Origin: Candidatus Woesebacteria bacterium RIFCSPHIGHO2_02_FULL_42_20 | GTDB taxonomy: Bacteria; Patescibacteriota; Microgenomatia; UBA8517 | Length of the DNA stretch: 64,000 nucleotides | Assembly (NCBI GenBank): GCA_001792535.1 | Contig: MGGS01000007.1 | Span: 44-64,043 of the forward strand | Reading direction: 5' to 3' | Part shown: in pieces, positions 6,798 to 46,668 of the stretch | How the letters are laid out: every line of letters starts with the position of its first letter | Numbering within the stretch: the stretch's first letter is position 1 | The notes under the pieces: model-generated | The model's database searches: none | The model's input: the letters and a program-made list of their open reading frames with translations, nothing else | Told to the model about the DNA's origin: nothing | Program-made: the position numbers and the translations under genes

Positions 6798-8011
6798 TTT
6801 TTGATACTACTTTGCAAGGACCCCACAATCGAATAGATTGGGGCAATAACCAAAATTACCATCGCACCCACCGCAACGCCGATAAAAAGCATCATCAAAG
6901 GCTCAAGTAAACTGGTAAGTCTCTTAAGATCGTTTTCGACTTCATTTTCGTAAAAGCCAGCCATCTCCTCCAAAACTTCATCAAGCCTGCCAGTCTTTTC
7001 CCCGGCCTTTATTGTCTGGATTACAACCAAAGGAAATGTACCCTTGGCGCGCGAAAGGACGCCGGAAAGCGACTCTCCTTTGGATACTTGCTCGGCAAAC
7101 TCAGTGGCTTTTCTTTTCAAGCCCGGCTGGCCCAAAGTATCTGCCGAAACATTTAAAGCGGTCGTTATCTGGACTCCACTCCGAAGAAGCGTAGATAATG
7201 TCCTTGAAAACCTGGCCACGTCGACTTTTAATGCTACCTTTTTGAGTAACGGGAGCTTAACCGCAAAATGGATAATTGCGTCTCGTGATTTTTTTATAAC
7301 AATTGTCAAAACCCCTAACAAACCAAGAACACCAACAATGACCAGGACAAGAACAGTGTTTTTCCCGACAAAATTACCAAAATTAAGAATGGCGGTAGTT
7401 AACGCCGGAAGAGGAACATTAAGCTTTATAAAAACAGTTGATATTTTTGGCAGAACAAATAGCAACATTAACAAACCCACACCAATCATCGACATAAAAA
7501 TCACAGCGGGGTACATCATTGAGTTCTTTACTTTTTGTGTAAGTTCATAGTTGGCATAAAGTTGCTTCGAAAGGTAATCGAAGGCTTCATCTAAGGTTCC
7601 GGACTCTTCTCCCGCCTTAATCATGGTTAAAAAAACCGGGTCAAAGTCAGACTTGTATTGCGACAAAACCGACGAGACGTTGTTCCCTTTTCTGGTCTGA
7701 AATGCAATATCGGAAAGTATTTTTTTCATTTTTTGGTTTTCCGATTCCTGTTTAATTATTTCCACCGCCTCCGGAAGCGAAAGGCCACTCCGAAGCATCG
7801 TCGCCATAAACCTGCAAAACGCCGCCTTTTCCGACACTTTTATCCCCCGACCGAAAATCCCCTGAACGTTACTTTCAAGTGACTTCACACTCAAAACCTT
7901 GTATCCGTTGGCCTTGAGCGACACAGCCGCATCCTCACGACTTGCAGCCTGAATAGTATCCTCACTTACTTTTCCCTTTTGATCCAAGACTTTGTACAAA
8001 AACAGCGGCAT
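6794..8011 (-). CDS. pilC: Type IV pilus inner-membrane platform protein PilC (GspF/T2SS-F family)
   Basis: 405 aa with two T2SSF-type repeats and 3 TM segments. Typical PilC length. Immediately downstream of pilB. Confidence 0.85.
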   Translation of the reverse strand: MPLFLYKVLDQKGKVSEDTIQAASREDAAVSLKANGYKVLSVKSLESNVQGIFGRGIKVSEKAAFCRFMATMLRSGLSLPEAVEIIKQESENQKMKKILSDIAFQTRKGNNVSSVLSQYKSDFDPVFLTMIKAGEESGTLDEAFDYLSKQLYANYELTQKVKNSMMYPAVIFMSMIGVGLLMLLFVLPKISTVFIKLNVPLPALTTAILNFGNFVGKNTVLVLVIVGVLGLLGVLTIVIKKSRDAIIHFAVKLPLLKKVALKVDVARFSRTLSTLLRSGVQITTALNVSADTLGQPGLKRKATEFAEQVSKGESLSGVLSRAKGTFPLVVIQTIKAGEKTGRLDEVLEEMAGFYENEVENDLKRLTSLLEPLMMLFIGVAVGAMVILVIAPIYSIVGSLQSSIKK

Positions 8012-8012
8012 A

Positions 8013-9692
8013 TCAACTCTCCCTTACGACTCTTATCATTTCGTCTATCGTAGTCAACCCGCTTGAAACTTTATTTAACCCGTCTGCAAGCATTGTCAGC
8101 ATCCCTTCCTTAACCGCGAGTGTCTCTAAATCATCCAGGGCGGACTTTTGAGTAATCAATTTGCGAATACTTTCAGACACCCGCATCACTTCGTAAATTC
8201 CGATTCTGCCCGCGTATCCCGACTTGTGACACTCGCCGCACCCCGTACCACGGTAAAATTTCTGGTCTTTGAGGTTAAGGTTAAATTCCTTTACAAACGG
8301 CCCCAACGTATTTTCATCGGGAGAGTATTCAGTGATGCAACTTGTACAAATTTTTCGAACCAGCCTCTGGGCGATTACCGCGTTGACCGTTGAAGCCAAT
8401 AAATAACCCTCAACGCCCATATCCAAAAATCTTGGGATTGCACCAGCCGCGGTATTGGTATGCAGCGTCGACAGGACCAAATGCCCGGTCAAGGCTGAGT
8501 GGACGGCAATCTCTGCGGTTTCTCTGTCTCGAATTTCACCTACCATAATTATGTCCGGGTCGTGCCTAAGCAGAGAGCGAAGGCCTGCTGCAAAATCCAG
8601 CCCGGCCTTTGGGTTTACTTGAATCTGGCTAACCCTCTTTACTCCATACTCAATAGGATCCTCGATGGTACAAATTTTGACCTTTACAGTATTTAAAATA
8701 TTCAGTATCGAATAAAGAGTCGTTGTCTTACCCGAACCCGTAGGGCCGGTCACCAAAAGCATGCCATTGGGTTTTGTTATATTATCTCTGACCACTTCCA
8801 GACCCTTGCCCGTAAGTCCCAATTCCTCCAAGCTCAGTGGCCTGCTGGTTTCGGGCAACAGCCTCATAACCACATTTTCGCCATAAAAACCCGGTATGAT
8901 CGAGATTCTCAAAGCAATCGTATCGTCGTCAATACTAAACCTGTGTCTGCCGTCTTGAGGAATTCTATGCTCGTCAATTTTGAGATTTGACAGAATTTTT
9001 ATCCTGGCCACCAAAGCAATCTCAATTCCTCTGGGAAGGCGGATGATGTCGCGAAGTATGCCGTCGATCCTAAACCGCACGACCACTTCTTCGGAATAGC
9101 TTTCGATATGAATGTCACTTGCCCTCTCTGCAGCCGCAAACTCGAAAATAGTATCCAGAATTTTAATTACCGGCAGCTCTTCCGCTGCCTTGGCAGGGTC
9201 TTTTTCAAGCTTAGTCTTGCTAACGTTTTCTTCAATTACTTTATCGAATTCCTCTCTAATATTTTTCTTATACTGACCCAGTGCTTTCCGCATCTCATCC
9301 GGGCCGGCATAATACGGCACAATTTCGAGGCCGGTTTGGCGTTTTGCAAATTCAATCGCCTCAAAGTCCGACGGATCCTCCATCGCAAGATTAAGCTTGT
9401 TATCCTGCCTGTCAAACGCAAGGATACGGTAGCTCCTCGCGGTCTTTTCCGGTATGAGCCGTAAGACTTCGTCGGCGGTAACTTTGTGGTTAAGATTCGC
9501 GTGCAGAACCTTTAGATGCTCTGCAACCAATTGTCCCAGCGTAGATTCACTTAAAAAGCCTTTAAATATCAAAATGTCTTCGGCACTTCTGCCAAGCTCC
9601 TGCGAAGACTTGGCAGCCTCATCAAAATCCTTTTCAGGCACATAGCCGGAGTCAACCAAGATTTTTTTGAGTGCTTCAATAGGGAGTTTCAT
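8013..9692 (-). CDS. pilB: Type IV pilus assembly ATPase PilB (GspE family)
   Basis: 559 aa. Walker A LLVTGPTGSGKTTTLYS, Asp-box, Walker B, His-box and C-terminal tetracysteine (CTSC...CGEC) typical of GspE/PilB. N-terminal GSPII-like domain. Confidence 0.9.
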   Translation of the reverse strand: MKLPIEALKKILVDSGYVPEKDFDEAAKSSQELGRSAEDILIFKGFLSESTLGQLVAEHLKVLHANLNHKVTADEVLRLIPEKTARSYRILAFDRQDNKLNLAMEDPSDFEAIEFAKRQTGLEIVPYYAGPDEMRKALGQYKKNIREEFDKVIEENVSKTKLEKDPAKAAEELPVIKILDTIFEFAAAERASDIHIESYSEEVVVRFRIDGILRDIIRLPRGIEIALVARIKILSNLKIDEHRIPQDGRHRFSIDDDTIALRISIIPGFYGENVVMRLLPETSRPLSLEELGLTGKGLEVVRDNITKPNGMLLVTGPTGSGKTTTLYSILNILNTVKVKICTIEDPIEYGVKRVSQIQVNPKAGLDFAAGLRSLLRHDPDIIMVGEIRDRETAEIAVHSALTGHLVLSTLHTNTAAGAIPRFLDMGVEGYLLASTVNAVIAQRLVRKICTSCITEYSPDENTLGPFVKEFNLNLKDQKFYRGTGCGECHKSGYAGRIGIYEVMRVSESIRKLITQKSALDDLETLAVKEGMLTMLADGLNKVSSGLTTIDEMIRVVRES

Positions 9693-34481: not shown

Positions 34482-34691
34482 TCAAACTGGGTCCCAGCCG
34501 AAGCCGCCAAAAGGGTTGCATTTGATTAACCTTCCTAGCGACATAAAACCGCCTCTAAAAACGCCATACTTTCGTAGTGCCTGATGACAATACTCGGAGC
34601 ACGAGGGTTCAAACCGACATCCGCTTCCAAAACTGGCCTTCAAAAATCTTGAAAGGTATTTTTTGTAAAATATAAACATCTTTGTCTTCAT
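34482..34691 (-). CDS. yidD: Membrane protein insertion efficiency factor YidD
   Basis: 69 aa. RFLKASFGSGCRFEPSCSEYCHQALRKYGVFRGGFMSLGRLIKCNPFGGFGWDPV is the YidD signature. Confidence 0.85.
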   Translation of the reverse strand: MKTKMFIFYKKYLSRFLKASFGSGCRFEPSCSEYCHQALRKYGVFRGGFMSLGRLIKCNPFGGFGWDPV

Positions 34692-35035
34692 TTTATCAGT
34701 AACTGCGCTCTTTCCAGCAAGTTCTTGATACAGCTGTCAACCGTCGCCCTATCTTTATCAATAATAGAAGTTTTTGTCAAAAATACAATGTCAAAACCTT
34801 TTTTAATCTTCCTTATTTGCTTCCTCAGTGACTCCCTCACCATCCTCTTTATTCTGTTTCGCTCTACAGCCTTTTTGGATATCTTTAACGAAACAATTAT
34901 CCCTATCCTTGTTGGTAGCTTTTCACTTCTAGTGTAAACAGACAGGCCAAGCGGGCCACTGTTGAACAGCTTTCCTTTACGTTTTACGTTTTCGAAGTTA
35001 AACCTGCCGACGAGTCTATTTTCGCGAGGTAACAC
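34688..35035 (-). CDS. rnpA: Ribonuclease P protein component RnpA (GTG start, overlapping rpmH stop)
   Basis: [16 protein letters not shown]... and [20 protein letters not shown] (RNR.KR motif). Confidence 0.85.
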
Positions 35036-35168
35036 TCAAAATTTTCCTTCCTTTAAGTCTTTTTCGCTTTAAAACATTTCTACCGGACTTGGTCGACATT
35101 CGCCTTCGAAAGCCAAATTTTCTCACCCGCCTGATTTTGCTCGGCTGATAAGTTCTTTTGGTTGACAT
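34938..35168. repeat. 231-bp direct repeat, copy A (rpmH plus first 33 codons of rnpA); identical to 37465-37695
   Basis: Base-by-base comparison: identical from acagacaggccaagcggg... to ...gttcttttggttgacat. Offset 2527 bp. Flanks diverge on both sides. Confidence 0.9.
35016..35168 (-). CDS. rpmH: 50S ribosomal protein L34
   Basis: Translates to [50 protein letters not shown] (50 aa), a classic L34. Below the 60-aa ORF-track cutoff, so found by direct translation. Confidence 0.85.
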
Positions 35169-35180
35169 GGAGCTATTATA

Positions 35181-35420
35181 CTAAAAATTGTCGCTGTTGA
35201 AAACATCAAGGTCCATAAAGTTCGGAACAAGGAGTAATTTTTTCATTAGCCAGTTTGAATTTTTCAATACTGCCGTCAAACTCCCACCATTTGTCTTTTG
35301 ACCAACTTCATACTCGAACTGTTCTTGGCTTAATATCTTTTCTACAAACCTTACAGCGATACTCAGCATTACTTAATTTCCAGAACTTTTTACCCTTACA
35401 TTTAATACAAACGAGTTTCA
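35181..35420 (-). pseudogene. IS1595-family transposase N-terminal remnant (zinc-ribbon only)
   Basis: Reverse strand from ATG at 35420: MKLVCIKCKGKKFWKLSNAEYRCKVCRKDIKPRTVRV*, resembling the IS1595/ISXO2 N-terminal zinc ribbon (C..CGS.K..KL.dgRYrCK.CrK.F). Downstream frames are broken and no DDE domain remains. Confidence 0.45.
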
Positions 35421-35559
35421 TAGCCCGATTATACCGTAATATCGTAACTTTCTAATATTTAAAGGTGCTAGTTAATGTATATTGAACCCGTTTCAAAACT
35501 CCATTAAGAATATTTGACAAATAAAAATAGGCAGTGCTAGCCTCAAATGTGAATTAGAA

Positions 35560-36400
35560 ATGAGGTGATTAACACTGCCCAATTCATATAATACAGATGT
35601 TCTTTCAGAGGCTCAACTTGAATATTTGGCTTCAAATCTTCCCAAACCCAAGGCAGACACCGGAAGACCAAGTTATTCAAACAGAGAGCTTTTACCCGGG
35701 ATTTTAAGAGTATTAAGGAGTGGCATGAGATGGAGGGACTTGGATGACAAAAGGTTTGCCTCAGGAGTTACACACTGGAGAAGAATGAGGTTTTGGCAGA
35801 TAAGGTTCGGACTTAGGAATGTTTTGAGATTTGTACTTGATAAACTAAAGGTACAAAGAAGGCTGAACCTAAGTATGGCCTCAATTGATGGATCACTAAT
35901 ACCCAGCTTTAACTTTTTTGACACAACCGGATATTCTGGTAAGTATAAAAAGACAGGAACTAAAATATCAACCCTGGTAGACTTTTGTGGGACCCCTTTT
36001 AATGTTGTCTTTGCTTCAGGAGAAAAACATGATATGCCTCTTGCCATGCCAACCATAGCAAATAATTCTGTTGGAAAGCCTGGAACAATCATAGCTGATA
36101 AAGGGTATGATTCTGATAAGTTCAGGTTCAAATTAAAACAAAATGGAATTAATACCAATATTCCAATAAGGAATATTAAAAACAGAAAAAAGCAAGAAAA
36201 CTACAACATTCCACTCGGAAAAATAAGGTTTAAGATAGAAAGAACAAATGCTTGGATAAAAAGTTTCAGAAGACTTCATTTCAGGTTTGATTACACTCTG
36301 GCTTCATTCCAAGCATTAACATACTTGGCCTTAATAGTAATCTGCTTAAGAAAGCTGGTGTAAAAACATCAATTTTCCAAAGAAGATTAACCTAACATCC
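35560..36400 (+). mobile_element. IS5-family insertion sequence (IS427/ISL2-like group), apparently intact single-ORF element; ends approximate
   Basis: Carries the transposase below. Terminal inverted repeats could not be identified by eye, so boundaries are estimated from ORF limits and the disrupted DedA gene. Confidence 0.4.
35626..36363 (+). CDS. IS5-family transposase (DDE_Tnp_1)
   Basis: SEAQLEYLASNLPKPKADTGRPSYSNRELLPGILRVLRSGMRWRDL (HTH plus GRP block); DDE triad candidates in IDGSLIP, IADKGYDSDKFR, ERTNAWIKSFRRLHFRFD. The in-frame upstream extension to 35569 suggests a non-ATG start earlier than the TTG at 35626. Confidence 0.8.
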   Translation: MASNLPKPKADTGRPSYSNRELLPGILRVLRSGMRWRDLDDKRFASGVTHWRRMRFWQIRFGLRNVLRFVLDKLKVQRRLNLSMASIDGSLIPSFNFFDTTGYSGKYKKTGTKISTLVDFCGTPFNVVFASGEKHDMPLAMPTIANNSVGKPGTIIADKGYDSDKFRFKLKQNGINTNIPIRNIKNRKKQENYNIPLGKIRFKIERTNAWIKSFRRLHFRFDYTLASFQALTYLALIVICLRKLV

Positions 36401-36408
36401 ACATAGTT

Positions 36409-36882
36409 TTGAAACCAGTTCATTACCCTTATCTATTTGGAATAAGCGTTGTTTGGTATATGGCAATTGCAAGTGTTTTGGGTTTTGTAACTAATTTCTG
36501 GATAGCGAGGAAACTGGGTGAACCTATTTTAAGACACCTTGTAGATAAACAGTCCATTAGTCGTGTTAATAAGTTGGTAGCCAACTATGGAAGGCTTTCT
36601 TTATTGTTCTCCAGAGTTTTTTTGGGAGGGTTTAATAATGTGGTATCGTACGCTGCAGGTTTGACCTCGATGAGTTTTAAAGACTGTTTTCTTATATCTT
36701 TCTTCGGCATAATTCCAGGCACGTTTGTATGGTTTATGCTGGCAAAAGATGCAGATTCTCCGGAGGAATTTACTATTTTGTCTGTCGGAATGTCTTATAT
36801 AATGTTCGTATTCTTTGCAAGCAGGTTGGTTGTTGGAAAATTGAAGAACGGGCGTTTCAGGGAAAAGGCCGGGGTAGGTTAA
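36409..36882 (+). CDS. TVP38/TMEM64 (DedA/SNARE-associated) family membrane protein, N-terminally truncated
   Basis: LLFSRVFLGGFNNVVSYAAGLTSMSFKDCFLISFFGIIPGTFVW matches the conserved C-terminal half (R..P..P..lvnyaaGlt...f...t.lG.lP). The ~60 N-terminal residues expected for the family are missing. Gene begins right after the IS5 element. Confidence 0.5.
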   Translation: MKPVHYPYLFGISVVWYMAIASVLGFVTNFWIARKLGEPILRHLVDKQSISRVNKLVANYGRLSLLFSRVFLGGFNNVVSYAAGLTSMSFKDCFLISFFGIIPGTFVWFMLAKDADSPEEFTILSVGMSYIMFVFFASRLVVGKLKNGRFREKAGVG

Positions 36883-37091
36883 TTTCTGGTTAAGGGGTGG
36901 CAGGCGGATATTGGAACGCGGATCTGCGAAACTATCTCGGCGGCGGCTTGGTTGCCTACCCCCAGCTCCATTGCGTCTTTATATGCGTCGTCGATAGCTG
37001 GAAGATTACTACATACATCCTGTACGCACCATTTGCCTTTGTAAAATGGACAAAGCACGGGATACCTTCCAGCATATCCAGTTTCAGCCAT
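36879..37091 (-). CDS. Small Cys-containing hypothetical protein (~70 aa from MAETGY)
   Basis: MAETGYAGRYPVLCPFYKGKWCVQDVCSNLPAIDDAYKDAMELGVGNQAAAEIVSQIRVPISACHPLTRN. No family recognised. Upstream part of the longest ORF overlaps the IS481 remnant and was discarded. Confidence 0.3.
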   Translation of the reverse strand: MAETGYAGRYPVLCPFYKGKWCVQDVCSNLPAIDDAYKDAMELGVGNQAAAEIVSQIRVPISACHPLTRN

Positions 37092-37122
37092 AACGACATT
37101 ATAGAATATTAGGTAAAAATAG

Positions 37123-37464
37123 TCAAAAGTTTGTACGGGCCCAGTACTTTTTCGACATTCCTCCTTTCGTATACAGATACTCAAGTGGTGTCATGTAGTT
37201 TAGTGATTGGTGTACTCTTTGGCTATTGAAGAATAACAAATAATCTGTAAGTTTTACAGAGAAAGCTTTGGATTCGTGAATGAGGTGCAGGTTTTGGTCG
37301 ATAAACTCCTCTTGAATTGTTCTGTTGAATCTCTCAACAACTCCGTTGATCTTGGGGCATCTTGGATATGTAAAGACATGTGCAACACCTTGTGCCCCAA
37401 GGTAGGCATCAAATACTCCCAGGAATTCGAGGCCATTGTCTGTCTTCCATCTTCCCTATTATAT
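37123..37464 (-). pseudogene. IS481-family transposase C-terminal remnant (rve integrase core, last ~110 aa), 5' end replaced by the duplicated rnpA fragment
   Basis: Reverse strand: GRWKTDNGLEFLGVFDAYLGAQGVAHVFTYPRCPKINGVVERFNRTIQEEFIDQNLHLIHESKAFSVKLTDYLLFFNSQRVHQSLNYMTPLEYL...*. The DNG.EF / T.P..P..NG.VERF.RT / YN..R.H..L pattern fits the IS481 family. Confidence 0.65.
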
Positions 37465-37562
37465 ACAGACAGGCCAAGCGGGCCACTGTTGAACAGCTTT
37501 CCTTTACGTTTTACGTTTTCGAAGTTAAACCTGCCGACGAGTCTATTTTCGCGAGGTAACAC
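37465..37562 (-). pseudogene. rnpA 5' fragment (first 33 codons), duplicate copy fused out of frame to the IS481 remnant
   Basis: Part of repeat copy B. ORF 37254-37562 begins [34 protein letters not shown], identical to rnpA, then diverges. Confidence 0.85.
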
Positions 37563-37695
37563 TCAAAATTTTCCTTCCTTTAAGTCTTTTTCGCTTTAAA
37601 ACATTTCTACCGGACTTGGTCGACATTCGCCTTCGAAAGCCAAATTTTCTCACCCGCCTGATTTTGCTCGGCTGATAAGTTCTTTTGGTTGACAT
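37543..37695 (-). CDS. rpmH: Second, sequence-identical copy of rpmH (L34) within repeat copy B
   Basis: Coordinates are copy A plus 2527. Whole rpmH ORF lies inside the perfect repeat. Upstream flank, and hence the promoter, differs from copy A. Confidence 0.7.
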
Positions 37696-37743
37696 CAACG
37701 TATTGTACCAAATACTTCTGATCTACTCAATCTCAAAAAGCAT

Positions 37744-38555
37744 TTACAACAATTGCGGTTGCAGATCTGTACCACGGGGGAAATCGCGCAAGAAACCGTT
37801 GCTTAAAGCTGTCTTTTCAAGGTTTTTAATCTCATTAATCTCACTTCTGTAGTCGAAAGGATCAGACGCGAAGACCCGATCCCAAATATAACTTGCAGAT
37901 AGGTCTTTGTTGTCGACGGCCAAGACCTCTCCCCCCACAATCTCCATTTGCCGTTCATATTCAGGTACTAATCTATGCCCGAATTCGCAACCCAGCATGT
38001 TGATACCAAGTCTTCGGTAGATATCCAAGAATTCTTCGCTTTGCCCTGATTCAAGGGGTAAAACAAAAACTGTTTTCCTCCCACCTTAGCACTGAGACGT
38101 GCATGGCCCATATGCGGGGGGTCAAAAGCACCATGTACCAAGCCAACTTTGCCCCCCATATTATGTAGCTCGTCTGCACGTTTTACTACCTCATCCCAAG
38201 TTTTATACTTTCCACTGGCTTCCAAACTTGCCTCGGGTTTACGAAAATATCCGTCTCTTATCAAAACCAGTTCTCGACTTGTTACCAGACCGAATTCCTT
38301 ACCTAAAAATTCTATGAAAGGAAGTATTAATAAATGTTGGATAGGGTTTTGGGGATAGGTTTTATATCGAGGCTTATACATACCAATTAAATACTCCAAG
38401 AAAAGCCCGCGCTGTTTGCTCAACAAGGGACAATAGACATTTAATACCAGAAGCTTGTCTCTCAACAACTTCAAATTATCTCTGCTAAAAAAATTGGCTT
38501 CAAAATTGTCCGCAGGAACTTTCGCCTCAACTGTCATACTCGCAAATGAAGTCAA
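37744..38555 (-). pseudogene. Cytidylyltransferase-like (HxGH nucleotidyltransferase) gene, apparently frameshifted (two overlapping ORFs 37968-38555 and 37744-38028)
   Basis: GKVGLVHGAFDPPHMGHARL is a G.FD..H.GH cytidylyltransferase/adenylyltransferase signature. It lies ~150 aa into the first ORF. Reading continues in another frame (MDIYRRLGINMLGCEFGH...). Could be a sequencing error or a true pseudogene. Confidence 0.4.
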
Positions 38556-38567
38556 GTATACAACATC

Positions 38568-40646
38568 TTAGCACTCGGTTATTTTTTCATTAACCAGTAT
38601 GAACTTTTCAATGTCTTCATTAAACTCCCACCATTTTTCAACACGAGTATCGCTTCCGTGGTCACCGCACTCAAAAAGGTCGTATGCACGTCCTGCAACT
38701 GGATCGAATCTCCCTATCCAATCAGAATACAATCTCACCGAGTCCGTGGAAACATCATATCCGACTACCAAATTTTCATAAAAGCCGCAGCCACCCGAGG
38801 TCGTTGTCAAAATAAATTCATTTGCATTTCCATCACCTGTATAGTCCTTCAAATCAATCAGCTCTTCGACTTTTAATTTATTCTTGGTAGCGTCCCGATA
38901 ATCTTCATAGTCATAGTTGACGTAAACAAGCGCCAGCTTGTCTTCGCTTTCAAAATTGGCCAGATTTGGAACATTTACGTCACTTATAATCTTACCGTCT
39001 TCAACTAACGCGGCATGGTAGTCCCCAATCATCGCCTGGCCAAGAATCTGTGTGGGGCAAGAGATATTTTTGTAATTAGGGTCTCCTAATCTATATTCCT
39101 GTTCTAAATAAACAACTATGTACTTATCTTTGTCAAGTTTTTTAAAGTCGCGCAAAAATGCTCCATGCACCAAACTGTTTTCCAGCACCTCCCTAATTGT
39201 CTGCTCAAAAATATCAGGAGGATCAAACCAAGAAGGCATGTCTCCTTTTAATCGAATAAGTTGATCGCTCGGAAAACTGGAGATTACTAACTCTGCTTTA
39301 TCTTGGAACATAAAAAGCTTTTTATCGGGAGAGATCAAAAAATCAGACGGACCGGACAATTTCGGAGAATATTCCGGCGCAATCTGCATCAAATTTCCCG
39401 TCTCTAGGTTGTATATGCTTGTTGTCCCCTTCGCATCTAAGTAACCATTTACTTGATTAATTAAGATATTGGATTCATCAATCCAAGAAAAATACAAATT
39501 TTGCGCCTGAATGTTTAAGGCTTTTGGTACTAAAATCTCATCGGACAAAACCTCATCCAAGGAAACAACAGCGAGTCCGAATAAATTCTCGGTATCGTAA
39601 AACTCGCCCTCTTTGTAAATAAATGCAATATTTTCACCCGACGGAGACCACTGTGAATCTCTTAAGTAAGCATTGCCAACACCAACTCGGAGCAAGTGCT
39701 CTTTGGATTCATTTGTAGAAACAACCTTTTCTCCCAAGTTGGAAAAACTCTTTATAAAATAGTTTCTGTTTGGCGAATATTTTACTGTCGGGTCAAAATA
39801 TATACTGCTTCTATAAAAATCCGTTTTGGTTGCGCTTTTTCTATTTCCTTCGAGATCGGCGTAAAAATAATCTACCCTATCTGGCATTAAACCGGCCTGT
39901 TCGCCGATCAAAATCGGATTGTTATTCTGATATTTCTCATTAAAATATAGCCCCAAAGAATCCTTTGACCAAAAGACGTCTCCAAAAACCTCGGCAATTA
40001 AAAGTTCGCTTTGATAAGTTTCAAGGTCGATGACGTAAAGTAAGTAATTAAAACCAGCAGTTGTTGCCTTAGCTTCGGGTATAAGCGAAAAACTTGACTT
40101 TCCGCCATATTCGCCCTGAACAAGCGTTGCCAAGTATTTCCCGTCGGGTGACCACAAAAAGGGGTAGACATAACCATCCACTCCAAGGTCATATTCCTTG
40201 CTTGTTGCAAAATCATACAACTTCGGTCTGCCGTCAGCGCCGTTAAAGGCGAGTTTATTCTCAAAATAATTGCCGCTCAGAGAGTTAACGTCTGAATCTT
40301 CTGTTTCCTTTGAATCAGGCCAAAATGAACGAAATGTTGTTAAAGAAACCACCACACCAAACAAAAGACTGGCAACCAAAATCAATTTCATCCATTTAGA
40401 GCTGATTGCCTCCTTACCCGAGGATTTGAAAATCTTTGCAACAACAAACTTGGAAACTAAAAATAAACAGCTAACAAAGGCCGGAAAAAATAAAGGCGGC
40501 AGCAATATACCGCTGTAGATTATTCCTACAAATAAACCTTCTAGGCCTTCTCTGCTCCCAATCCAGAGTTTCAAAACAAGTAAAGCAGCCACAAACGCTC
40601 CGCCGCTTATCCAAAAAACTTTCTTCAAAAGTTGATTTTCGGTCAT
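38568..40646 (-). CDS. Membrane-anchored protein with large extracytoplasmic TolB/PD40-like beta-propeller region
   Basis: 692 aa. Three N-terminal TM helices. Recurrent WSPDG/SP.G..IAF-type blades (LWSPDGKYLATL, QWSPSGENIAFI, LISPDKKLFMF). Confidence 0.55.
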   Translation of the reverse strand: MTENQLLKKVFWISGGAFVAALLVLKLWIGSREGLEGLFVGIIYSGILLPPLFFPAFVSCLFLVSKFVVAKIFKSSGKEAISSKWMKLILVASLLFGVVVSLTTFRSFWPDSKETEDSDVNSLSGNYFENKLAFNGADGRPKLYDFATSKEYDLGVDGYVYPFLWSPDGKYLATLVQGEYGGKSSFSLIPEAKATTAGFNYLLYVIDLETYQSELLIAEVFGDVFWSKDSLGLYFNEKYQNNNPILIGEQAGLMPDRVDYFYADLEGNRKSATKTDFYRSSIYFDPTVKYSPNRNYFIKSFSNLGEKVVSTNESKEHLLRVGVGNAYLRDSQWSPSGENIAFIYKEGEFYDTENLFGLAVVSLDEVLSDEILVPKALNIQAQNLYFSWIDESNILINQVNGYLDAKGTTSIYNLETGNLMQIAPEYSPKLSGPSDFLISPDKKLFMFQDKAELVISSFPSDQLIRLKGDMPSWFDPPDIFEQTIREVLENSLVHGAFLRDFKKLDKDKYIVVYLEQEYRLGDPNYKNISCPTQILGQAMIGDYHAALVEDGKIISDVNVPNLANFESEDKLALVYVNYDYEDYRDATKNKLKVEELIDLKDYTGDGNANEFILTTTSGGCGFYENLVVGYDVSTDSVRLYSDWIGRFDPVAGRAYDLFECGDHGSDTRVEKWWEFNEDIEKFILVNEKITEC

Positions 40647-41803
40647 CAGTAATTTATTGAAGACAAAATCTCTTTAATAATATCAACATCACCTAGGTTT
40701 GGAAAACTGGCGGTAACCATTGGACTATAAGGCTGGCTGTAAAAAGAAGCTGTATAGGTTAGGCCAGAAACTTCAAAACTGAATCTGTACCCACCATTTG
40801 GATGGTCCAAAATGTCTGTTTCGTAAGTCTTCCCTTTGATCTTGACTAAAAACTTACCTGCATTCTCGCATCTCGTATTTGCACAAAGTGCACCTGATGT
40901 TGAAAAAATAAGTCCGTGGCCAATGTAAACATTGGTATAACTATTGTCATCCGAATCATCTCTGACACCAAAACTTTTATTGATTGGTCTATTGCTAACA
41001 AGCGTCAAGTACCCGTCACTTGTGTCGCTTCGCCAAACAGTCCAGCCCCAGGGCACCTGCACAGTAAAGCCTTGGTTTATATCAGTGTAGTAATTTTCGC
41101 CACCCATAATCTTTAATTCACTTCTTGGAACAAAAATTCCACTGTGATATTGAAAGCTATCAATTATCTCGTCAAAAATCGCTTTATCAGCCTCACCACC
41201 ACCCCAACCGTGATATTTTATTTCAAAAGTAAGATCATTTACCTCGAAAATCAAATAACCAAGAAATTCTATTCTTCCCAGCTCTTGAGCCAGTAAGGCA
41301 GTATATTTTTCGGCAGGAATTTTAACATACTTTTCTAAAGAAATATTTTCTTTCTGAAAATCGAAGTTTGTCGGAAGATTTGCCCGAACTTTTGAAATAG
41401 GTGTGTCACTTATGTCTATAGACAAGTCATACCCAAGCTCCACATAATAATGATTGAATCCAAGGTAATCAATAAATTCTTCATGACTAATTTCGTAAGG
41501 ATCTTGGTACTTAATGTAAAAGTTATACCTTTCATCTCTATAAAATCTCCAATTATCTTTAATTGTGTTGTTCAAAACATTTTTGCAAACACTAAGCTCT
41601 TGTTGACAGGAAAAATCACCTGCTTTAGGTGTAGGGGGGAGATTCATTATTTGAGTTTCAGGTAAAGGGGTCGTTGAAAACCTAAAAGGTTTTATTAAAT
41701 ATAAAAGCCCAAAAATTAACAAAATAACCAGGCCAGCTCCAGCAAGCAAGACTTTTCTGTTTACTAATTTATAAAAGAAATTTACGACAGAAATTATATT
41801 CAC
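40646..41803 (-). CDS. Membrane-anchored hypothetical protein (385 aa)
   Basis: N-terminal TM LLAGAGLVILLIFGLLYLI. Extracellular Tyr/Trp-rich domain. No recognised motif. Confidence 0.45.
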   Translation of the reverse strand: MNIISVVNFFYKLVNRKVLLAGAGLVILLIFGLLYLIKPFRFSTTPLPETQIMNLPPTPKAGDFSCQQELSVCKNVLNNTIKDNWRFYRDERYNFYIKYQDPYEISHEEFIDYLGFNHYYVELGYDLSIDISDTPISKVRANLPTNFDFQKENISLEKYVKIPAEKYTALLAQELGRIEFLGYLIFEVNDLTFEIKYHGWGGGEADKAIFDEIIDSFQYHSGIFVPRSELKIMGGENYYTDINQGFTVQVPWGWTVWRSDTSDGYLTLVSNRPINKSFGVRDDSDDNSYTNVYIGHGLIFSTSGALCANTRCENAGKFLVKIKGKTYETDILDHPNGGYRFSFEVSGLTYTASFYSQPYSPMVTASFPNLGDVDIIKEILSSINY

Positions 41804-41864
41804 CGATAATTAAAGTATACACAAACCCAAATTAGCGTATTTAGAAACACAATTCACCAAAAAG

Positions 41865-42314
41865 TCATTTTCTAGTTTTGTTTTTCTCGTACTTTTCCAA
41901 AAATTTCTCAATGTATTGGGCAAATTGGGCCAAGTCCGGAAGGCGGTTTTGAATATTATCATAAGTAATACCTTTTTTGACATTTAAGTACCCGTGCACC
42001 AACACATTCCTGTAGCCAGTCATACTTATCATCTTATCTGCAAAATCCCCGGGTAAAATATCCTCTTGCGCCAACTCATAAAAAACCTCGCTGTTTTTAT
42101 CAAACTCTCTGCTAAACCCTAGTGACGCAACAATATGATTAGCAATATCCAGACACGCTTGGATTGCTACTTGCAAATTGTGCTCGGCGGAAGAGTTCAA
42201 AACTTCGTCTTTAGTAAGCTCTTCTTCTAATAAAGGCTTAAATCTTTTCTCCAACAACCTAACGCGTTTTCTTATCTCCTTAACCCTACTCACAACTTTA
42301 TATGTATCCAACAC
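41865..42314 (-). CDS. hepT: HepT-type toxin (DUF86, Rx4HxY RNase) of a HepT/MntA module
   Basis: MTGYRNVLVHGYLNV contains the R-x4-H-x-Y catalytic motif. 149 aa. Overlaps upstream mntA by 17 nt. Confidence 0.8.
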   Translation of the reverse strand: MLDTYKVVSRVKEIRKRVRLLEKRFKPLLEEELTKDEVLNSSAEHNLQVAIQACLDIANHIVASLGFSREFDKNSEVFYELAQEDILPGDFADKMISMTGYRNVLVHGYLNVKKGITYDNIQNRLPDLAQFAQYIEKFLEKYEKNKTRK

Positions 42315-42735
42315 CCAACTCTCCTTTCCTTGCCATCTCTCTTAAGTATCTAAAATATTCATCTATGGAAGGCTTCATATCAAAAAACTCCCTTAAAATC
42401 TTTTCTTCAAAATCTACCCTGATCTTTGAGTCCAATCCTGATAAAATCTCTCCTTCTGAAATTACTCGGTGGGCAAAGTCAATAGGTGCCTTTTCCAAAT
42501 CCTGAACCTCTACTTCCTTCCCTAATAATTTTGAAAGGTCGTAAGTGTATCTGGTTTGGGGAATATCAAAGCCGCCAAAGGTTTTTCTGTCGGCAACAAG
42601 CGCTGCAAGGTCTATATCAGAGTCGCCTCGCGCAAAACCTTTTACTTGCGAACCATACAAATAAACCGCCGCTATTTCAGGCCTCCTTTCAAAAAATTTA
42701 ACAATCTGGTCTTTTTGTCTTTTGCCTAAATTCAT
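42298..42735 (-). CDS. mntA: MntA-type nucleotidyltransferase antitoxin
   Basis: VYLYGSQVKGFARGDSDIDLAAL: GS-x9-SD.D minimal NTase motif. 145 aa. Confidence 0.8.
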   Translation of the reverse strand: MNLGKRQKDQIVKFFERRPEIAAVYLYGSQVKGFARGDSDIDLAALVADRKTFGGFDIPQTRYTYDLSKLLGKEVEVQDLEKAPIDFAHRVISEGEILSGLDSKIRVDFEEKILREFFDMKPSIDEYFRYLREMARKGELGVGYI

Positions 42736-42796
42736 GATCTAAGTATACCAAAAACTCTCGTTGCCCCAAAAAATTGCTACAATAAAGGTGTAGCTA

Positions 42797-43195
42797 ATGA
42801 TTAAATATTTTTTCAAAGGCTGGATTAAAACTACTTTAAAATCTATTCTTCTGACGTTCGCACTTCTTATTGTTGTTATAATTTTATTTATGGTCATCCC
42901 TATGCCGCAAGCTATCGAACAAAAACTAGCCAATGCGGAGCTAGGAGCTCTATCTATTTTTGTACCTCCAATCTTAATATCCCTCACTTTATCCTCCATA
43001 ATTATCGGCCTTAAGGAGAAAGATAAAATAGAAATGGCAACAAAAAATAAAATAGGAATTATTGGCATTGGTATCCCAATAGCAGCAATGCTCTCGTCAC
43101 TATTAAGTCTTCCGATCTTCCTTATGCTTCTTCTGGTTATTGTTGAGACTACCGGATTAATACTGGGTTTACTGCTGGGCCGGTTTATAAATTAA
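42797..43195 (+). CDS. Small polytopic membrane protein, hypothetical
   Basis: 132 aa, 4 hydrophobic segments, plausible RBS (aaaggtg). Preferred over the fully overlapping antisense ORF 42739-43068. Confidence 0.4.
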   Translation: MIKYFFKGWIKTTLKSILLTFALLIVVIILFMVIPMPQAIEQKLANAELGALSIFVPPILISLTLSSIIIGLKEKDKIEMATKNKIGIIGIGIPIAAMLSSLLSLPIFLMLLLVIVETTGLILGLLLGRFIN

Positions 43196-43946
43196 GCATC
43201 ATTGACTCGCCGTTTGGTCTTCGGATTTCAATTTCGTTTTCCGAAAGCCAAGTTTTAATAAATGCTTCATTTTCTGAATAAACTCTTACTTTTTCTTTTG
43301 TCTTTGGATTATATCCCCAAATTCCTCCTCTTTTTTCTATCTCGCTATTCGGAATCTCAACAGTGTAAAGATCTGTCGAAACTCCTCTTCTTGACACCTC
43401 CGCAGAGTAATAAACAAGCTCGCAGTCTGGTGACCAGTAAACGTTGTCGACGGCAACGTATGACCAAGTGTTGTTAACATTCGAATAGTTTTCACCATAG
43501 ACCCCCATTGGGACCGGCCCGCACTTTTCAATTCCTTTTTTTAAATCCCAGGAAAAATCCTTATTTTCAGCCGCTTCCTCCTTACATCTTTCCCTGTCCT
43601 CCTGCCAAAAATCTTCCCTTCTGTCAATTTTCTCACACAGTGTCCGGTCTTTTAATTGAACCGCAACATTTATAATGCAACCATTTTTCTTCCATAAAGT
43701 TTGGACCATATCACAAATACCGACATTTTTTTGATAAGTAGCCACGCCAAAATAACAATCATCTTTATCTCCAATGATAAAATTGCAGTCGAAAAGTTGT
43801 CTGCAATCGTTTCTGATCCCTACAACGCCACCAACTTTCTTTATACAGCTACTGTTTGCCGAAAGAACAGTAAACAACAGCGCAATCAATCCCAACAGAA
43901 CCAGACCAACGAACAAGCGTTTCTTGGTAACAACTCCTCCAATCAC
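43185..43946 (-). CDS. Secreted/anchored Cys-rich hypothetical protein
   Basis: Start trimmed to the GTG before VVTKKRLFVGLVLLGLIALLFTVL (signal/anchor). ~12 Cys in the mature part. No family recognised. Confidence 0.4.
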   Translation of the reverse strand: MIGGVVTKKRLFVGLVLLGLIALLFTVLSANSSCIKKVGGVVGIRNDCRQLFDCNFIIGDKDDCYFGVATYQKNVGICDMVQTLWKKNGCIINVAVQLKDRTLCEKIDRREDFWQEDRERCKEEAAENKDFSWDLKKGIEKCGPVPMGVYGENYSNVNNTWSYVAVDNVYWSPDCELVYYSAEVSRRGVSTDLYTVEIPNSEIEKRGGIWGYNPKTKEKVRVYSENEAFIKTWLSENEIEIRRPNGESMMLNL

Positions 43947-43994
43947 TTCACTTTCATTGTTCCACAAACAAAGATTTGCTACAATAAAACCAGC

Positions 43995-44474
43995 ATGGCA
44001 GATACTTGGCCTGGCGCAAGAATGGGAAAGATGCAAAGATACCTAGACACAATAGCCGGTGCGAACCAATTACCAGCACTTCTTCGTCGAGTAGACGAAT
44101 TTGGTCAGCGCGAAGCCGCTGGAAGAAAAGACTCAGATTTTCTTGACCCAACGGAAAGAATGAGAACTCTTTTAAGAGATTTACCTGGCTCAGAGGAACT
44201 CTTGGTAACGATAACAACAACTAAAGGGAGGTTGCCTAATGAGGATTCTGTTGAGGGAGCAAGGGTCCGCTTGGCAATGGCTGCCAACCTTTGCTTTAAA
44301 GATAATAGAAATGCTATTAAAGAAGGTCAGGTAGAACCAATACAACCTGTGGGTAAATTTTTGGAGGCACAAATACTCTCAAGGGATCCTGGCATCAGAG
44401 AAAGGGAGGGTGTGCCAAGGCCAGAGGACATAGTTGAAGCTGAATTTAGCGTTGTTGGCCCTGAAGGGAATTGA
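43995..44474 (+). CDS. Hypothetical soluble protein (159 aa), acidic, more GC-rich by eye
   Basis: Internal Met of ORF 43701-44474 chosen to avoid antisense overlap. MADTWPGARMGKMQRYLDTIAGANQLPALLRRVDEF... No motif. Confidence 0.35.
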   Translation: MADTWPGARMGKMQRYLDTIAGANQLPALLRRVDEFGQREAAGRKDSDFLDPTERMRTLLRDLPGSEELLVTITTTKGRLPNEDSVEGARVRLAMAANLCFKDNRNAIKEGQVEPIQPVGKFLEAQILSRDPGIREREGVPRPEDIVEAEFSVVGPEGN

Positions 44475-44497
44475 GACACGTTGTAAAATAAACCCAA

Positions 44498-45034
44498 ATG
44501 GTAGATGAAACTGATACTGGTTTTACAGGAAAAACATTAAAGGCGGAGTACGAAAGTAGAAACCGTGTTCCATTTAGTGTGGATTTGACGGGACAACCGC
44601 TAACAAAAAAGTTAGACAGGGGGTCAATCCTACTTGTACTGGAAAACGCCAGAGGTTTCCATAAATCATCAGAGGCCAATAACAGAATGTTAAACCAACA
44701 TACTTCTGCACAAAAAGACAGGGAAATGACGACTCTTTTTGAAAGAGCATTAGAAGTAGCAAATGGAAAAAGGAAAAACACGGATAGTCTTAGAGAGTCC
44801 ATCCTTGTTTTGGCTAAAGAAGCCGAAACTGAGGCAAATAAAACTTACCAAAAACAACCATTAGATACAGATAACTCAGATACAGAACATGGGGGTACTT
44901 TATCAGACCCAGAGTTGTTAGAAGCCGAAAAAAAGCAGGTCGCTAGAGTGATAAGTTTTGTTAATGAAAATGCTGATCGCTGGGCCAGTGGCGATTTAAA
45001 GGATCCTGAACTTCCAAATCCTCCAACATCTTAG
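44498..45034 (+). CDS. Hypothetical soluble acidic protein (178 aa) immediately upstream of the dnaA promoter
   Basis: Clean ORF. No motif recognised. Confidence 0.4.
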   Translation: MVDETDTGFTGKTLKAEYESRNRVPFSVDLTGQPLTKKLDRGSILLVLENARGFHKSSEANNRMLNQHTSAQKDREMTTLFERALEVANGKRKNTDSLRESILVLAKEAETEANKTYQKQPLDTDNSDTEHGGTLSDPELLEAEKKQVARVISFVNENADRWASGDLKDPELPNPPTS

Positions 45035-45086
45035 CTTTTTTCAATTACTCAACAAAAATGACATATAAACATACACTTTTTGGGGG

Positions 45087-45133
45087 TTGACCTGTTGTGG
45101 GTAACTTTCTAATATGCCGATTAGAAAGTTACC
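45087..45133 (+). promoter_or_regulatory. dnaA promoter region: TTGACC-17-TAATAT with a perfect 14-bp inverted repeat (GGTAACTTTCTAAT-6-ATTAGAAAGTTACC) spanning the -10 through to 3 nt before the dnaA ATG
   Basis: ttgacc at 45087-92, 17-nt spacer, taatat at 45110-15. Palindrome arms at 45100-45113 and 45120-45133 checked base by base. Confidence 0.6.
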
Positions 45134-45136
45134 CCA

Positions 45137-46527: not shown

Positions 46528-46668
46528 TGATATCCACTTATCCACAAAAATGGTTAATTTATCAACAATACTATCCACAATTCGGTAAGTTCAGTGTAAA
46601 CAATTCATTTCAAGTTCTCTGGAAATCGGCAATCCACATATCCACACTGCCTACTACTACAACTACTA
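46528..46668. promoter_or_regulatory. oriC core between dnaA and dnaN: five DnaA boxes plus a DnaA-trio array (3'-GAT-5' repeats) plus a downstream AT-rich stretch
   Basis: Boxes: aTATCCACt 46528-36, TTATCCACA 46537-45 (perfect), cTATCCACA 46570-78, caATCCACA 46630-38, aTATCCACA 46638-46. GC spacer ctgc, then cta cta cta caa cta cta at 46651-46668 (complement 3'-GAT-5' x5). An AT-rich stretch then runs to the dnaN start. Confidence 0.75.

Follow-up and report, generated by a model that had tools for sequence, protein, structure and literature searches.

Organization of the rpmH–rnpA Region

The 64,000-nt stretch analysed here (hereafter, the window) carries near the replication origin a direct repeat of 231 nt, each copy of which contains, on the minus strand, a full rpmH gene (50 codons) for ribosomal protein L34 followed by the first 98 nt of rnpA (Table 1). 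In a self-comparison of the window, copies A and B are identical base for base at an offset of 2527, as an earlier note on this DNA had claimed, and the first bases outside the repeat are unlike at either end (34937 A vs. 37464 T; 35169 G vs. 37696 C). At one end, the boundary coincides exactly with the A of the rpmH ATG. The L34 identity of the rpmH copies is given by Pfam Ribosomal_L34 (E = 3.9e-19) and TIGR01030 (E = 1.6e-18). The proximity to the origin, also put forward earlier, is borne out by a cumulative GC-skew minimum at about 44–46 kb and by four DnaA boxes at 46538–46646, some 9 kb from the repeat.

Copy A lies, as already described, within an intact rpmH-rnpA-yidD-yidC-jag operon, in which the GTG start of rnpA leads to a 20-nt overlap with the end of rpmH-A. 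In copy B, a complete rpmH is followed by a truncated rnpA that abuts the C-terminus of an IS481-family transposase; this much of the earlier description stands, but the rnpA frame does not read on into the transposase. Indeed, the 102-aa ORF that starts in the truncated rnpA crosses the IS481 remnant in the +1 frame, while the transposase frame itself has two stop codons at the junction, so that no fusion protein with transposase sequence is encoded. This ORF matched no Pfam family, and its “RnpA-like” character is probably a meaningless annotation artefact.

The interval between the copies is filled with IS debris, and the family profiles and the ORF list agree with the contents listed in the earlier note as regards the IS481 C-terminus beside copy B, the IS5 element, the truncated DedA gene, and the small Cys-rich ORF. 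The IS481 remnant, which has lost its N-terminal two thirds, is also matched by rve_3 (E = 3e-13), and the essentially full-length IS5 transposase reaches 150.9 bits with NF033580 (cut-off 110), with further matches to DDE_Tnp_1 and DUF4096. The IS1595 N-terminal stump is a weaker case, its zinc ribbon scoring below the family threshold. The Cys-rich ORF found no match in the family search and is preceded by TTGACT, 17 nt, TATAAT, 6 nt, and ATG; neither Rfam nor tRNA scanning gave a match in the region. Two IS-borne origins of the repeat were rejected. A target-site duplication would be a repeat of 2–15 bp abutting the inverted repeats of one element, whereas the repeat measures 231 bp and its edges, the rpmH ATG and rnpA codon 33, do not coincide with the ends of an IS, and both the IS481 and the IS1595 piece nearby are internally truncated. 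A composite transposon would have its cargo between two copies of one IS; here, the repeated sequence is rpmH-rnpA, and the window has no more than a single IS5, IS481, and IS1595 sequence.

Table 1. Features and variants of the rpmH–rnpA region, in window coordinates.
Feature	Position	Strand	Evidence or remark
Intact rnpA, 115 aa	34688..35035	−	Pfam Ribonuclease_P E = 3e-24, whole profile covered
Repeat copy A: rpmH-A (35016–35168) and rnpA codons 1–33	34938..35168	−	Exact identity with 37465–37695
16-bp frameshifting deletion in rpmH-A of GCA_001793275.1	35051..35066	−	Between TTAAAG direct repeats
Promoter P_A: TTTTCA, 17 nt, TATAAT	35175..35203	−	6 nt separate it from the rpmH-A ATG; leaderless layout
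Decayed 3′-terminal ~23 codons of an orf692-like gene, immediately upstream of P_A	35227..35295	−	81% DNA identity over 62 nt to 38578–38639
Short zinc-ribbon ORF, possible IS1595 N-terminal stump	35311..35421	−	Zn_ribbon_IS1595 E = 0.007, below the Pfam cut-off
IS5-family element, transposase 35626–36363	35480..36425	+	21-nt terminal inverted repeats
N-terminally truncated DedA/VTT membrane protein gene	36460..36882	+	VTT_dom E = 1.6e-18; UptA profile 54–176 of 198
Cys-rich 70-aa ORF (36879–37091) with strong leaderless-type promoter	36879..37126	−	
IS481-family DDE transposase C-terminal remnant, ~108 codons	37126..37449	−	NF033577 transpos_IS481 E = 5e-22, profile 194–283 of 284
Chimeric 102-aa ORF: rnpA codons 1–38, then IS481 remnant out of frame	37254..37562	−	
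Diverged rnpA continuation of copy B, codons ~34–38, VYNRED	37450..37464	−	Outside the identical core
Repeat copy B: rpmH-B (37543–37695) and first 98 nt of truncated rnpA	37465..37695	−	Identity; L34 family matches
Two synonymous differences in rpmH-B of GCA_001792075.1	37609..37629	−	Codon 29 GGT>GGC, codon 23 CGA>AGA
Promoter P_B: TTGAGT, 17 nt with TG, TACAAT	37702..37730	−	6 nt separate it from the rpmH-B ATG
Two overlapping orphan ORFs, 195 and 84–94 aa, between orf692 and P_B	37744..38555	−	
Intact orf692, conserved hypothetical gene	38568..40646	−	3′ end is the counterpart of the decayed remnant at 35227..35295

Edges of the Identical Core, Promoters, and Synteny

In the earlier note, the rnpA homology of copy B ended at codon 33; in fact, 15 further rnpA-derived nucleotides (37464–37450) follow, and they belong to a diverged allele. 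They share 13/15 positions with rnpA of L013, the closest relative (empirical p = 3e-5), to which they align in frame (VYNRED vs. VYNRGD), and only 8/15 with copy A, i.e., 7 differences against 0/231 within the core. Alignments of IS481 transposase homologs begin no earlier than (K)TDNG (37446/37443 and downward); this flank is not transposase sequence. The corresponding 15 nt of copy A are identical to those of L013 at 10 positions only; a pseudogene under neutral drift would not be expected to leave the flank of copy B the nearer of the two, and this closeness would suit a foreign origin of one copy just as well. At the promoter-side edge, four of the first five nucleotides differ, and P_A and P_B resemble each other over the −10 region only (11/17, p = 0.005). 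The identity tract is, thus, bounded at both edges by an abrupt shift to diverged yet homologous sequence, although these flanks are short (15 and ~17 nt), so that any estimate of the age of the duplication rests on few sites.

The two identical L34 genes have different upstream regions, as had been noticed before: P_B has the layout of P_A and a different sequence. P_A is identical at 28/37 nt to the rpmH promoter of L013 (p = 8e-6), and a −10 box 6–7 nt upstream of the rpmH start codon is shared by both copies, L013, and three of the six more distant relatives examined (L015, L016, and L019). By itself, the promoter scan is not significant (10 sites vs. 8.8 expected), and we, therefore, put weight only on the position of the −10 box relative to the ATG, which is conserved across relatives.

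A second, decayed repeat lies upstream of the promoters. The remnant preceding P_A matches residues 670–692 of orf692 in tblastn (E = 1e-4) and, compared with 38571–38639, is about as diverged as the ortholog of L013: over 57 nt, the paralogs share 46 positions, and the comparisons with L013 give 46/57 and 43/57. In L013, the ORF preceding rpmH (706 aa) is 62% identical to intact orf692. The order orf692 tail, promoter, rpmH, and 5′ rnpA is present twice in the same orientation, which is what characterizes a tandem segmental duplication, the original junction being obscured by IS debris. Between orf692 and P_B, the first of the orphan ORFs has a NadD-like HxGH motif in its C-terminal part, and a word-indexed protein search with the orphan ORF upstream of copy B matched its own cluster only.

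Related genomes, with which a comparison had been suggested, have a single rpmH: L013 is organized as orf706-P-rpmH-rnpA, with the orf692 homolog directly upstream of rpmH, and in the six more distant relatives dnaA adjoins the single rpmH. Over the core, the paralogs are 100% identical and the ortholog of L013 only 71% (165/231), the classic pattern of concerted evolution. The relative search found no genome with an RnpA identity between 65% and 99%, and since the orphan ORF matches its own cluster only, the duplication cannot be dated or polarised.

Contigs Spanning the Repeat and Population Variants

A perfect 231-nt repeat cannot be a product of chance within 64 kb, and it is real, with at least four independent contigs holding both copies. 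Both copies and the same intervening 2.3 kb are found on scaffold_215, scaffold_13514, MGHN01000018, and MGFW01000009, which differ in length and in sample of origin; about 28 further contigs, not individually displayed, were grouped with contigs crossing one copy into its own flank. All the contigs compared come from short-read metagenome assemblies, the repeat being longer than the reads. MEGAHIT k141 contigs break off after exactly 141 nt of the repeat (37555 is the last position of L007 and L008; L042 covers 37605..35028), which is the assembly-graph signature of a true repeat, and the copies of MGFW01000009 differ at two sites and have, therefore, not been collapsed.

Several variants of the locus are found in the population. 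The two differences in copy B of GCA_001792075.1, lacking in the other strains, could be either new mutations or differences that have been erased elsewhere. In GCA_001793275.1, the 16-bp deletion frameshifts rpmH-A, so that rpmH-B would be the only intact L34 gene there; the deletion is read from one GenBank contig and from contig breaks, the contigs of three other assemblies ending at 35054–35070. A single-copy arrangement, P_B-R-A-flank (R being the repeat), is seen on four contigs of 0.6–1.9 kb from four samples, and the reciprocal P_A-R-B-flank on none of the contigs examined, as predicted by deletion between the repeats; such short contigs could also be path switches of the assembler. 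The population variants, the orf692 tail before copy A, and the promoter of copy B are all absent from the earlier note.

Origin and Maintenance of the Repeat

Of the two explanations offered earlier for the lack of divergence, a very recent event or gene conversion, the second fits better, as homologous but diverged sequence sets in abruptly at either edge of the core. We, thus, consider it probable, on the strength of these sequence comparisons, that the locus derives from an old tandem duplication with an IS-filled junction, the core of which has been kept identical by gene conversion.

The order of events that we infer is the following. In a Woesebacteria lineage with the ancestral order orf692-rpmH-rnpA-yidD-yidC, a tandem duplication would have copied a segment running at least from the 3′ end of orf692 through the rpmH promoter and rpmH to about codon 38 of rnpA, or beyond. 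Complementary decay would then have left orf692 and rpmH-B in the upstream copy, which lost rnpA, and rpmH-A with the operon in the downstream copy, which lost orf692; the junction would have gathered IS481, IS1595, and IS5 insertions, later trimmed by deletions. RecA-type interlocus gene conversion between the direct repeats would continually homogenise the 231-bp core, the last few homologous bases at each edge escaping conversion and diverging. A separate promoter would drive each rpmH, yielding a leaderless mRNA, and the repeats would permit deletion of the intervening 2.5 kb, giving the single-copy variant under P_B. Both rpmH genes are probably functional. rpmH-B is an intact ORF with P_B in front of it, both differences observed in it are synonymous, and one strain has a frameshifted copy A.

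An unlikely alternative, and still the most serious one, is that a single-copy orf84-P_B-rpmH-rnpA arrangement is ancestral and that a circular or linear 2.5-kb fragment, made of IS debris and a piece of related chromosome (orf692 tail, P_A, rpmH, and 5′ rnpA), integrated by homologous recombination within rpmH-rnpA, in a Campbell-type or homology-facilitated manner, the core being homogenised afterwards. The single-copy contigs of four samples would then be the original state, and the orf692 tail remnant, P_A, and the copy B flank would stand side by side in a circular 2.5-kb unit. Moreover, P_A and the copy B flank are more L013-like than P_B and the copy A flank, while within the orf692 tail this holds only for the few codons after EKIT. 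However, P_A is orthologous to the promoter of L013 and lies in synteny upstream of the intact operon, which makes an incoming fragment less parsimonious; a donor with diverged flanks would lack an identical 231-bp core, so that conversion is needed here too; and the circle junction P_A-R-B-flank is on no contig.

Slightly less credible still is a very recent one-step duplication of exactly 231 bp, without gene conversion, in which any likeness outside the repeat would be due to chance or promoter convergence. The complete identity of the 231 bp, which holds for the window and for most assemblies, is what such an event predicts, and IS elements do adjoin the repeat; nevertheless, the repeat edges are not IS ends, the in-frame match of the copy B flank to rnpA of L013 would be fortuitous, a correctly spaced −35/−10 pair directly before a copy starting at the ATG would be a coincidence, and the second decayed repeat, the orf692 tail, stands in the same order.

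An assembly artefact, either two strains joined through the shared 231 bp or a one-copy chromosome with a separate 2.5-kb circle, is very improbable: the read length, the P_B-R-A-flank contigs, and the inability of an assembly graph to separate R-X-R from chromosome plus circle do leave room for it, but the four two-copy contigs and the group of contigs crossing single copies speak against it, as do the two differences in MGFW01000009, the joining of the interval to both copies through unique sequence, and a circle that would have no replication gene and whose junction is never seen. We also rejected a retro-copy, i.e., a cDNA of a leaderless mRNA, as might be suggested by a repeat starting at the ATG, since the −10 box of copy B shares the position and part of the sequence of that of copy A and the other end of the repeat continues into diverged rnpA.

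Comparison with Known Systems

Concerted evolution by RecA-dependent gene conversion is known for tufA/tufB in Salmonella and E. coli (PMC5485169), and long-lasting concerted evolution has been described for prokaryotic paralogs (PMC6053082), rpmH not being mentioned in the latter work. Like tufA/tufB, the rpmH copies are two paralogs of the translation apparatus on one chromosome, with (near-)identical coding cores and diverged flanks, and are closer to each other than to their orthologs. Unlike tufA/tufB, the converted unit is only 231 bp long and lies in direct repeats 2.5 kb apart instead of at distant loci, one copy carries a dead rnpA fragment, and conversion is deduced here from sequence.

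As for duplicates of rpmH itself, our literature search found only the DU1 duplication of BCG, which is likewise an origin-proximal tandem duplication including rpmH and rnpA, unstable and varying between substrains. DU1, however, is recent, spans 7–30 kb, and duplicates oriC, dnaA, and dnaN, whereas the rpmH duplicate that survives here is an old and decayed one of under 0.4 kb, with IS debris interrupting it. An oriC-spanning duplication of this type was rejected for the present locus, dnaA and dnaN being single and the window having one DnaA-box cluster.

Duplicated ribosomal protein genes of bacteria include the Zn-binding and Zn-free paralogs of L31, L33, L36, S14, and S18, which are Zur-regulated and differ in sequence and function. 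The present case resembles them in having a second small ribosomal protein gene with a different upstream region, but its two L34 proteins do not differ, and there is no sign that they are regulated differently. Truncated IS481 and IS1595 sequences fused to truncated host genes, with an intact IS5 inside, recall the adjacent deletions and pseudogene “junkyards” associated with IS elements; the 231-bp repeat, in contrast, belongs to no IS and is not a target-site duplication either.

The locus is, thus, a new example of known mechanisms, i.e., of ordinary bacterial genome evolution, and does not challenge current understanding. It does illustrate that a perfect repeat need not be young, as a few bases outside it can show that an old duplication is being homogenised, and it offers a rare within-population view, in an uncultivated groundwater bacterium of the Candidate Phyla Radiation (CPR), of the duplicated head of an essential operon that decays, is converted, and is deleted. 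A bolder reading, to which we give little credence, is that selection maintains, in a CPR bacterium with a reduced genome, two identical leaderless L34 genes, each with its own promoter, and that the Rifle population captures every stage in the fate of a duplicate. If true, these stages would be the two copies in homogenised form, their silent divergence, the ancestral copy lost through the 16-bp deletion, and repeat-mediated deletion; the latter would purge the IS debris and put the essential rnpA-yidC operon under a new promoter, a natural route of duplication, decay, and deletion to promoter replacement beside the origin.

For annotators, the two L34 genes per genome already present in the GenBank annotation of these genomes are real in this lineage, the assemblies of which break, or may switch paths, at the rpmH repeat.

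Repeat and Diverged Edges

Positions 34938-35168 and 37465-37695 of the window are identical base for base over 231 nt, as the earlier note had reported, and the adjoining bases differ at both ends. One edge of this core coincides exactly with the A of the rpmH (L34) start codon. All genes relevant to the repeat are on the minus strand; downstream of rpmH-rnpA at copy A lie yidD, yidC, jag and a gene for RNase H.

Features of the repeat and of the interval between its copies (in minus-strand order, beginning with copy B)
Feature	Coordinates	Strand	Remarks
Copy B	rpmH-B 37543-37695	-	plus the same 98 nt of rnpA as in copy A
Diverged rnpA	37464-37450	-	15 nt
IS481-family transposase	~37449-37126	-	last ~108 codons; NF033577 E=5e-22, profile 194-283 of 284
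Cys-rich ORF	after IS481 remnant		70 aa; own strong predicted promoter
DedA gene		opposite	~50 N-terminal residues missing
IS5 element		opposite	essentially full-length; 21-nt inverted repeats
IS1595 zinc-ribbon stump	between IS5 and orf692 remnant		weakly supported
orf692-like gene remnant	35227-35295	-	last ~23 codons
P_A			rpmH-A promoter; last interval feature before copy A
Copy A	rpmH-A 35016-35168	-	plus first 98 nt of intact rnpA (34688-35035)

Past the rnpA end of the core, copy B (B-flank) reads A TAT AAT AGG GAA GA, rnpA of L013, the closest available relative (YidC 81% identical), reads T TAT AAT AGG GGA GA in the corresponding codons, and copy A (A-flank) reads T TAC ACT AGA AGT GA. 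The B-flank matches the L013 rnpA in frame at 13/15 positions, a score equalled at only 4 of 127,880 window positions, and 7 of its 15 bases do not match copy A. Comparison with transposase homologs (consensus VQTDNGLEF) places the start of transposase homology only past these 15 nt. Identity thus falls from 231/231 to 8/15 inside sequence that is still homologous.

On the other side, the rpmH-B promoter P_B (TTGAGT, 17 nt with an extended TG, TACAAT, 6 nt, ATG) resembles P_A around the -10 box only (11/17, p=0.005). Farther out, a second pair of matching segments keeps this order, namely two tails of the conserved hypothetical gene orf692, which share 81% identity and are roughly equidistant from each other and from L013 (46/57, 46/57 and 43/57), and the remnant beside copy A extends a few codons like the longer C-terminus of L013. 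The core itself is 71% identical to L013 (165/231). If neutral divergence were even 19%, the chance of the 78 unconstrained rnpA bases in copy B all remaining identical would, by our own arithmetic, be about 1e-7. Judging from sequence comparison, a perfect core within an older, decayed duplication is the signature of interlocus gene conversion, which has been described in tufA/tufB (PMC5485169) and among further paralogs of prokaryotes (PMC6053082).

The earlier note, which proposed a recent event or ongoing conversion together with an rnpA-transposase fusion, was partly right: the identical core is better read as a conversion tract inside an old duplication, and the two parts of the fusion are not in the same frame. 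In copy B, translation from rnpA would cross the transposase remnant out of register, and two stops lie in the transposase frame at the junction, so that the 102-aa ORF is no fusion protein with transposase sequence in it. The repeat is neither a target-site duplication nor a composite transposon: its edges do not coincide with IS termini, and none of the IS sequences occurs twice.

Two features of the interval deserve mention. The promoter of the Cys-rich ORF (37089-37126; TTGACT, 17 nt, TATAAT, 6 nt, ATG) may be a hybrid arisen at the end of the IS, because within 37098-37126 its -35 box overlaps the last codons and the stop of the IS481 remnant. About 28 assemblies break at 36422-36476, just beyond the right end of IS5 (L006-type contigs stop at 36422, L002-type at 36476), which suggests either presence/absence polymorphism of IS5 or a second DedA-side copy elsewhere in the genome.

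Assembly Support and Population Variation

By exact-protein look-ups, the sequence belongs to metagenomes of the Rifle aquifer and to Candidatus Woesebacteria MAGs in GenBank, where two L34 proteins per genome are already annotated (OGM14682 and OGM14687; OGM29696 and OGM29701). Both copies and the intervening 2.3 kb lie together on four contigs of differing lengths and samples (scaffold_215, scaffold_13514, MGHN01000018 and MGFW01000009); about 28 more contigs from the look-ups, not shown individually, were grouped with contigs crossing one copy into its own flank. MEGAHIT k141 contigs end exactly 141 nt inside the repeat, and one consists of the interval with 141 nt of copy B on one side and 141 nt of copy A on the other (37605..35028), the expected product of a true repeat in a de Bruijn graph.

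The locus varies between strains. MGFW01000009 (GCA_001792075.1) shows six differences from the window in 12.2 kb, all inside 35265-37629; two of them, both synonymous, are in rpmH-B (codon 23 CGA>AGA, codon 29 GGT>GGC), so the copies are not identical in that strain. The clustering of the six within 2.4 kb of otherwise identical strains exceeds expectation, even when selection on the debris is taken to be relaxed.

In MGHP01000025 (L037; GCA_001793275.1), a 16-bp deletion between TTAAAG repeats in rpmH-A (35051-35066) cuts L34 to 38 residues, and contigs of three other assemblies terminate at 35054-35070. If the deletion is real, rpmH-B is the sole intact L34 gene of this strain, in whose assembly the copy-B region is missing (contigs break off at 37665 and 37464). 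The truncated frame ends at a TGA abutting the rnpA GTG (TGAGTG; window 35035-35066) and could act as a short upstream ORF coupling translation into rnpA.

In four short contigs (L029, L031, L032 and L045), which come from four samples and were built by at least two assembly pipelines, P_B is joined through the repeat to the A-flank, the single-copy arrangement that recombination between the repeats would yield. The reciprocal P_A-repeat-B-flank junction was not seen among the fetched contigs. These contigs may be assembler path switches, or they may be real deletion variants, the reading that we favour.

Proposed History and Known Systems

In the history that we infer, an ancestor arranged orf692-P-rpmH-rnpA, like L013, would have undergone a tandem duplication taking in at least the orf692 3' end to rnpA codon 38. 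The junction would then have received IS481, IS1595 and IS5 insertions, later trimmed by deletions, and two orphan ORFs would have come between orf692 and rpmH-B, giving P_B its new -35 region. Presumably orf692 was kept in the upstream copy, rnpA in the downstream copy, and rpmH in both, homogenised through conversion.

The mechanism is ordinary, segmental duplication plus gene conversion, and the locus is a new example of known mechanisms; our analysis adds that an old duplication holds a putative conversion tract, that the "fusion" is out of frame and that the locus is polymorphic in the population. Known ribosomal-protein paralog pairs have members differing in sequence and regulation, unlike the L34 pair of the window. 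In BCG, the DU1 duplications, which are unstable, invariably take in rnpA and rpmH (PMC6615170). The duplication described here resembles them but lacks dnaA-oriC-dnaN, single in the window.

Relatives and Probable Leaderless mRNAs

In six more distant Woesebacteria/Patescibacteria genomes, dnaN-dnaA adjoins a single rpmH-rnpA-yidD-yidC-jag; in L013, a 706-aa orf692 homolog ends 40 bp before the single rpmH. The L013 rpmH promoter is, from its sequence, clearly orthologous to P_A (28/37 identical, p=8e-6; TTTTCA, 17 nt, TATAAT, AGCT(C/T)C, ATG). A -10 box ends 6-7 nt before the rpmH ATG in both window copies (35169-35203 and 37696-37730), in L013 (9270-9314) and upstream of rpmH in the more distant L015, L016 and L019. 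As this recurrent box leaves no room for a Shine-Dalgarno sequence, rpmH in this group is probably translated from leaderless mRNA; its occurrence at rpmH of several Woesebacteria and at the Cys-rich ORF suggests widespread use of leaderless mRNAs in the lineage.

The two overlapping orphan ORFs (37744-38555, -; 195 and 84-94 aa) may represent a single gene that is frameshifted or degenerate; a word-indexed protein search matched only their own cluster, and residues 131-157 of the 195-aa ORF bear a weak resemblance to the HxGH motif near the N-terminus of NadD-type nucleotidyltransferases (E ~1e-3 to 0.08). Compared with orf692 of the window (38568-40646, -), which ends right after EKITEC, the L013 homolog (7152-9272) has an extra 84-residue C-terminal extension reaching up to 40 bp before rpmH. 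The dnaA-rpmH distance in the window is ~7.4 kb (37696-45136), comprising hypothetical genes, a HepT/nucleotidyltransferase toxin-antitoxin pair (41865-42735), orf385 and orf692, whereas more distant Woesebacteria have dnaA and rpmH side by side; the DnaA-box cluster of the window lies between dnaA and dnaN (46538-46646).
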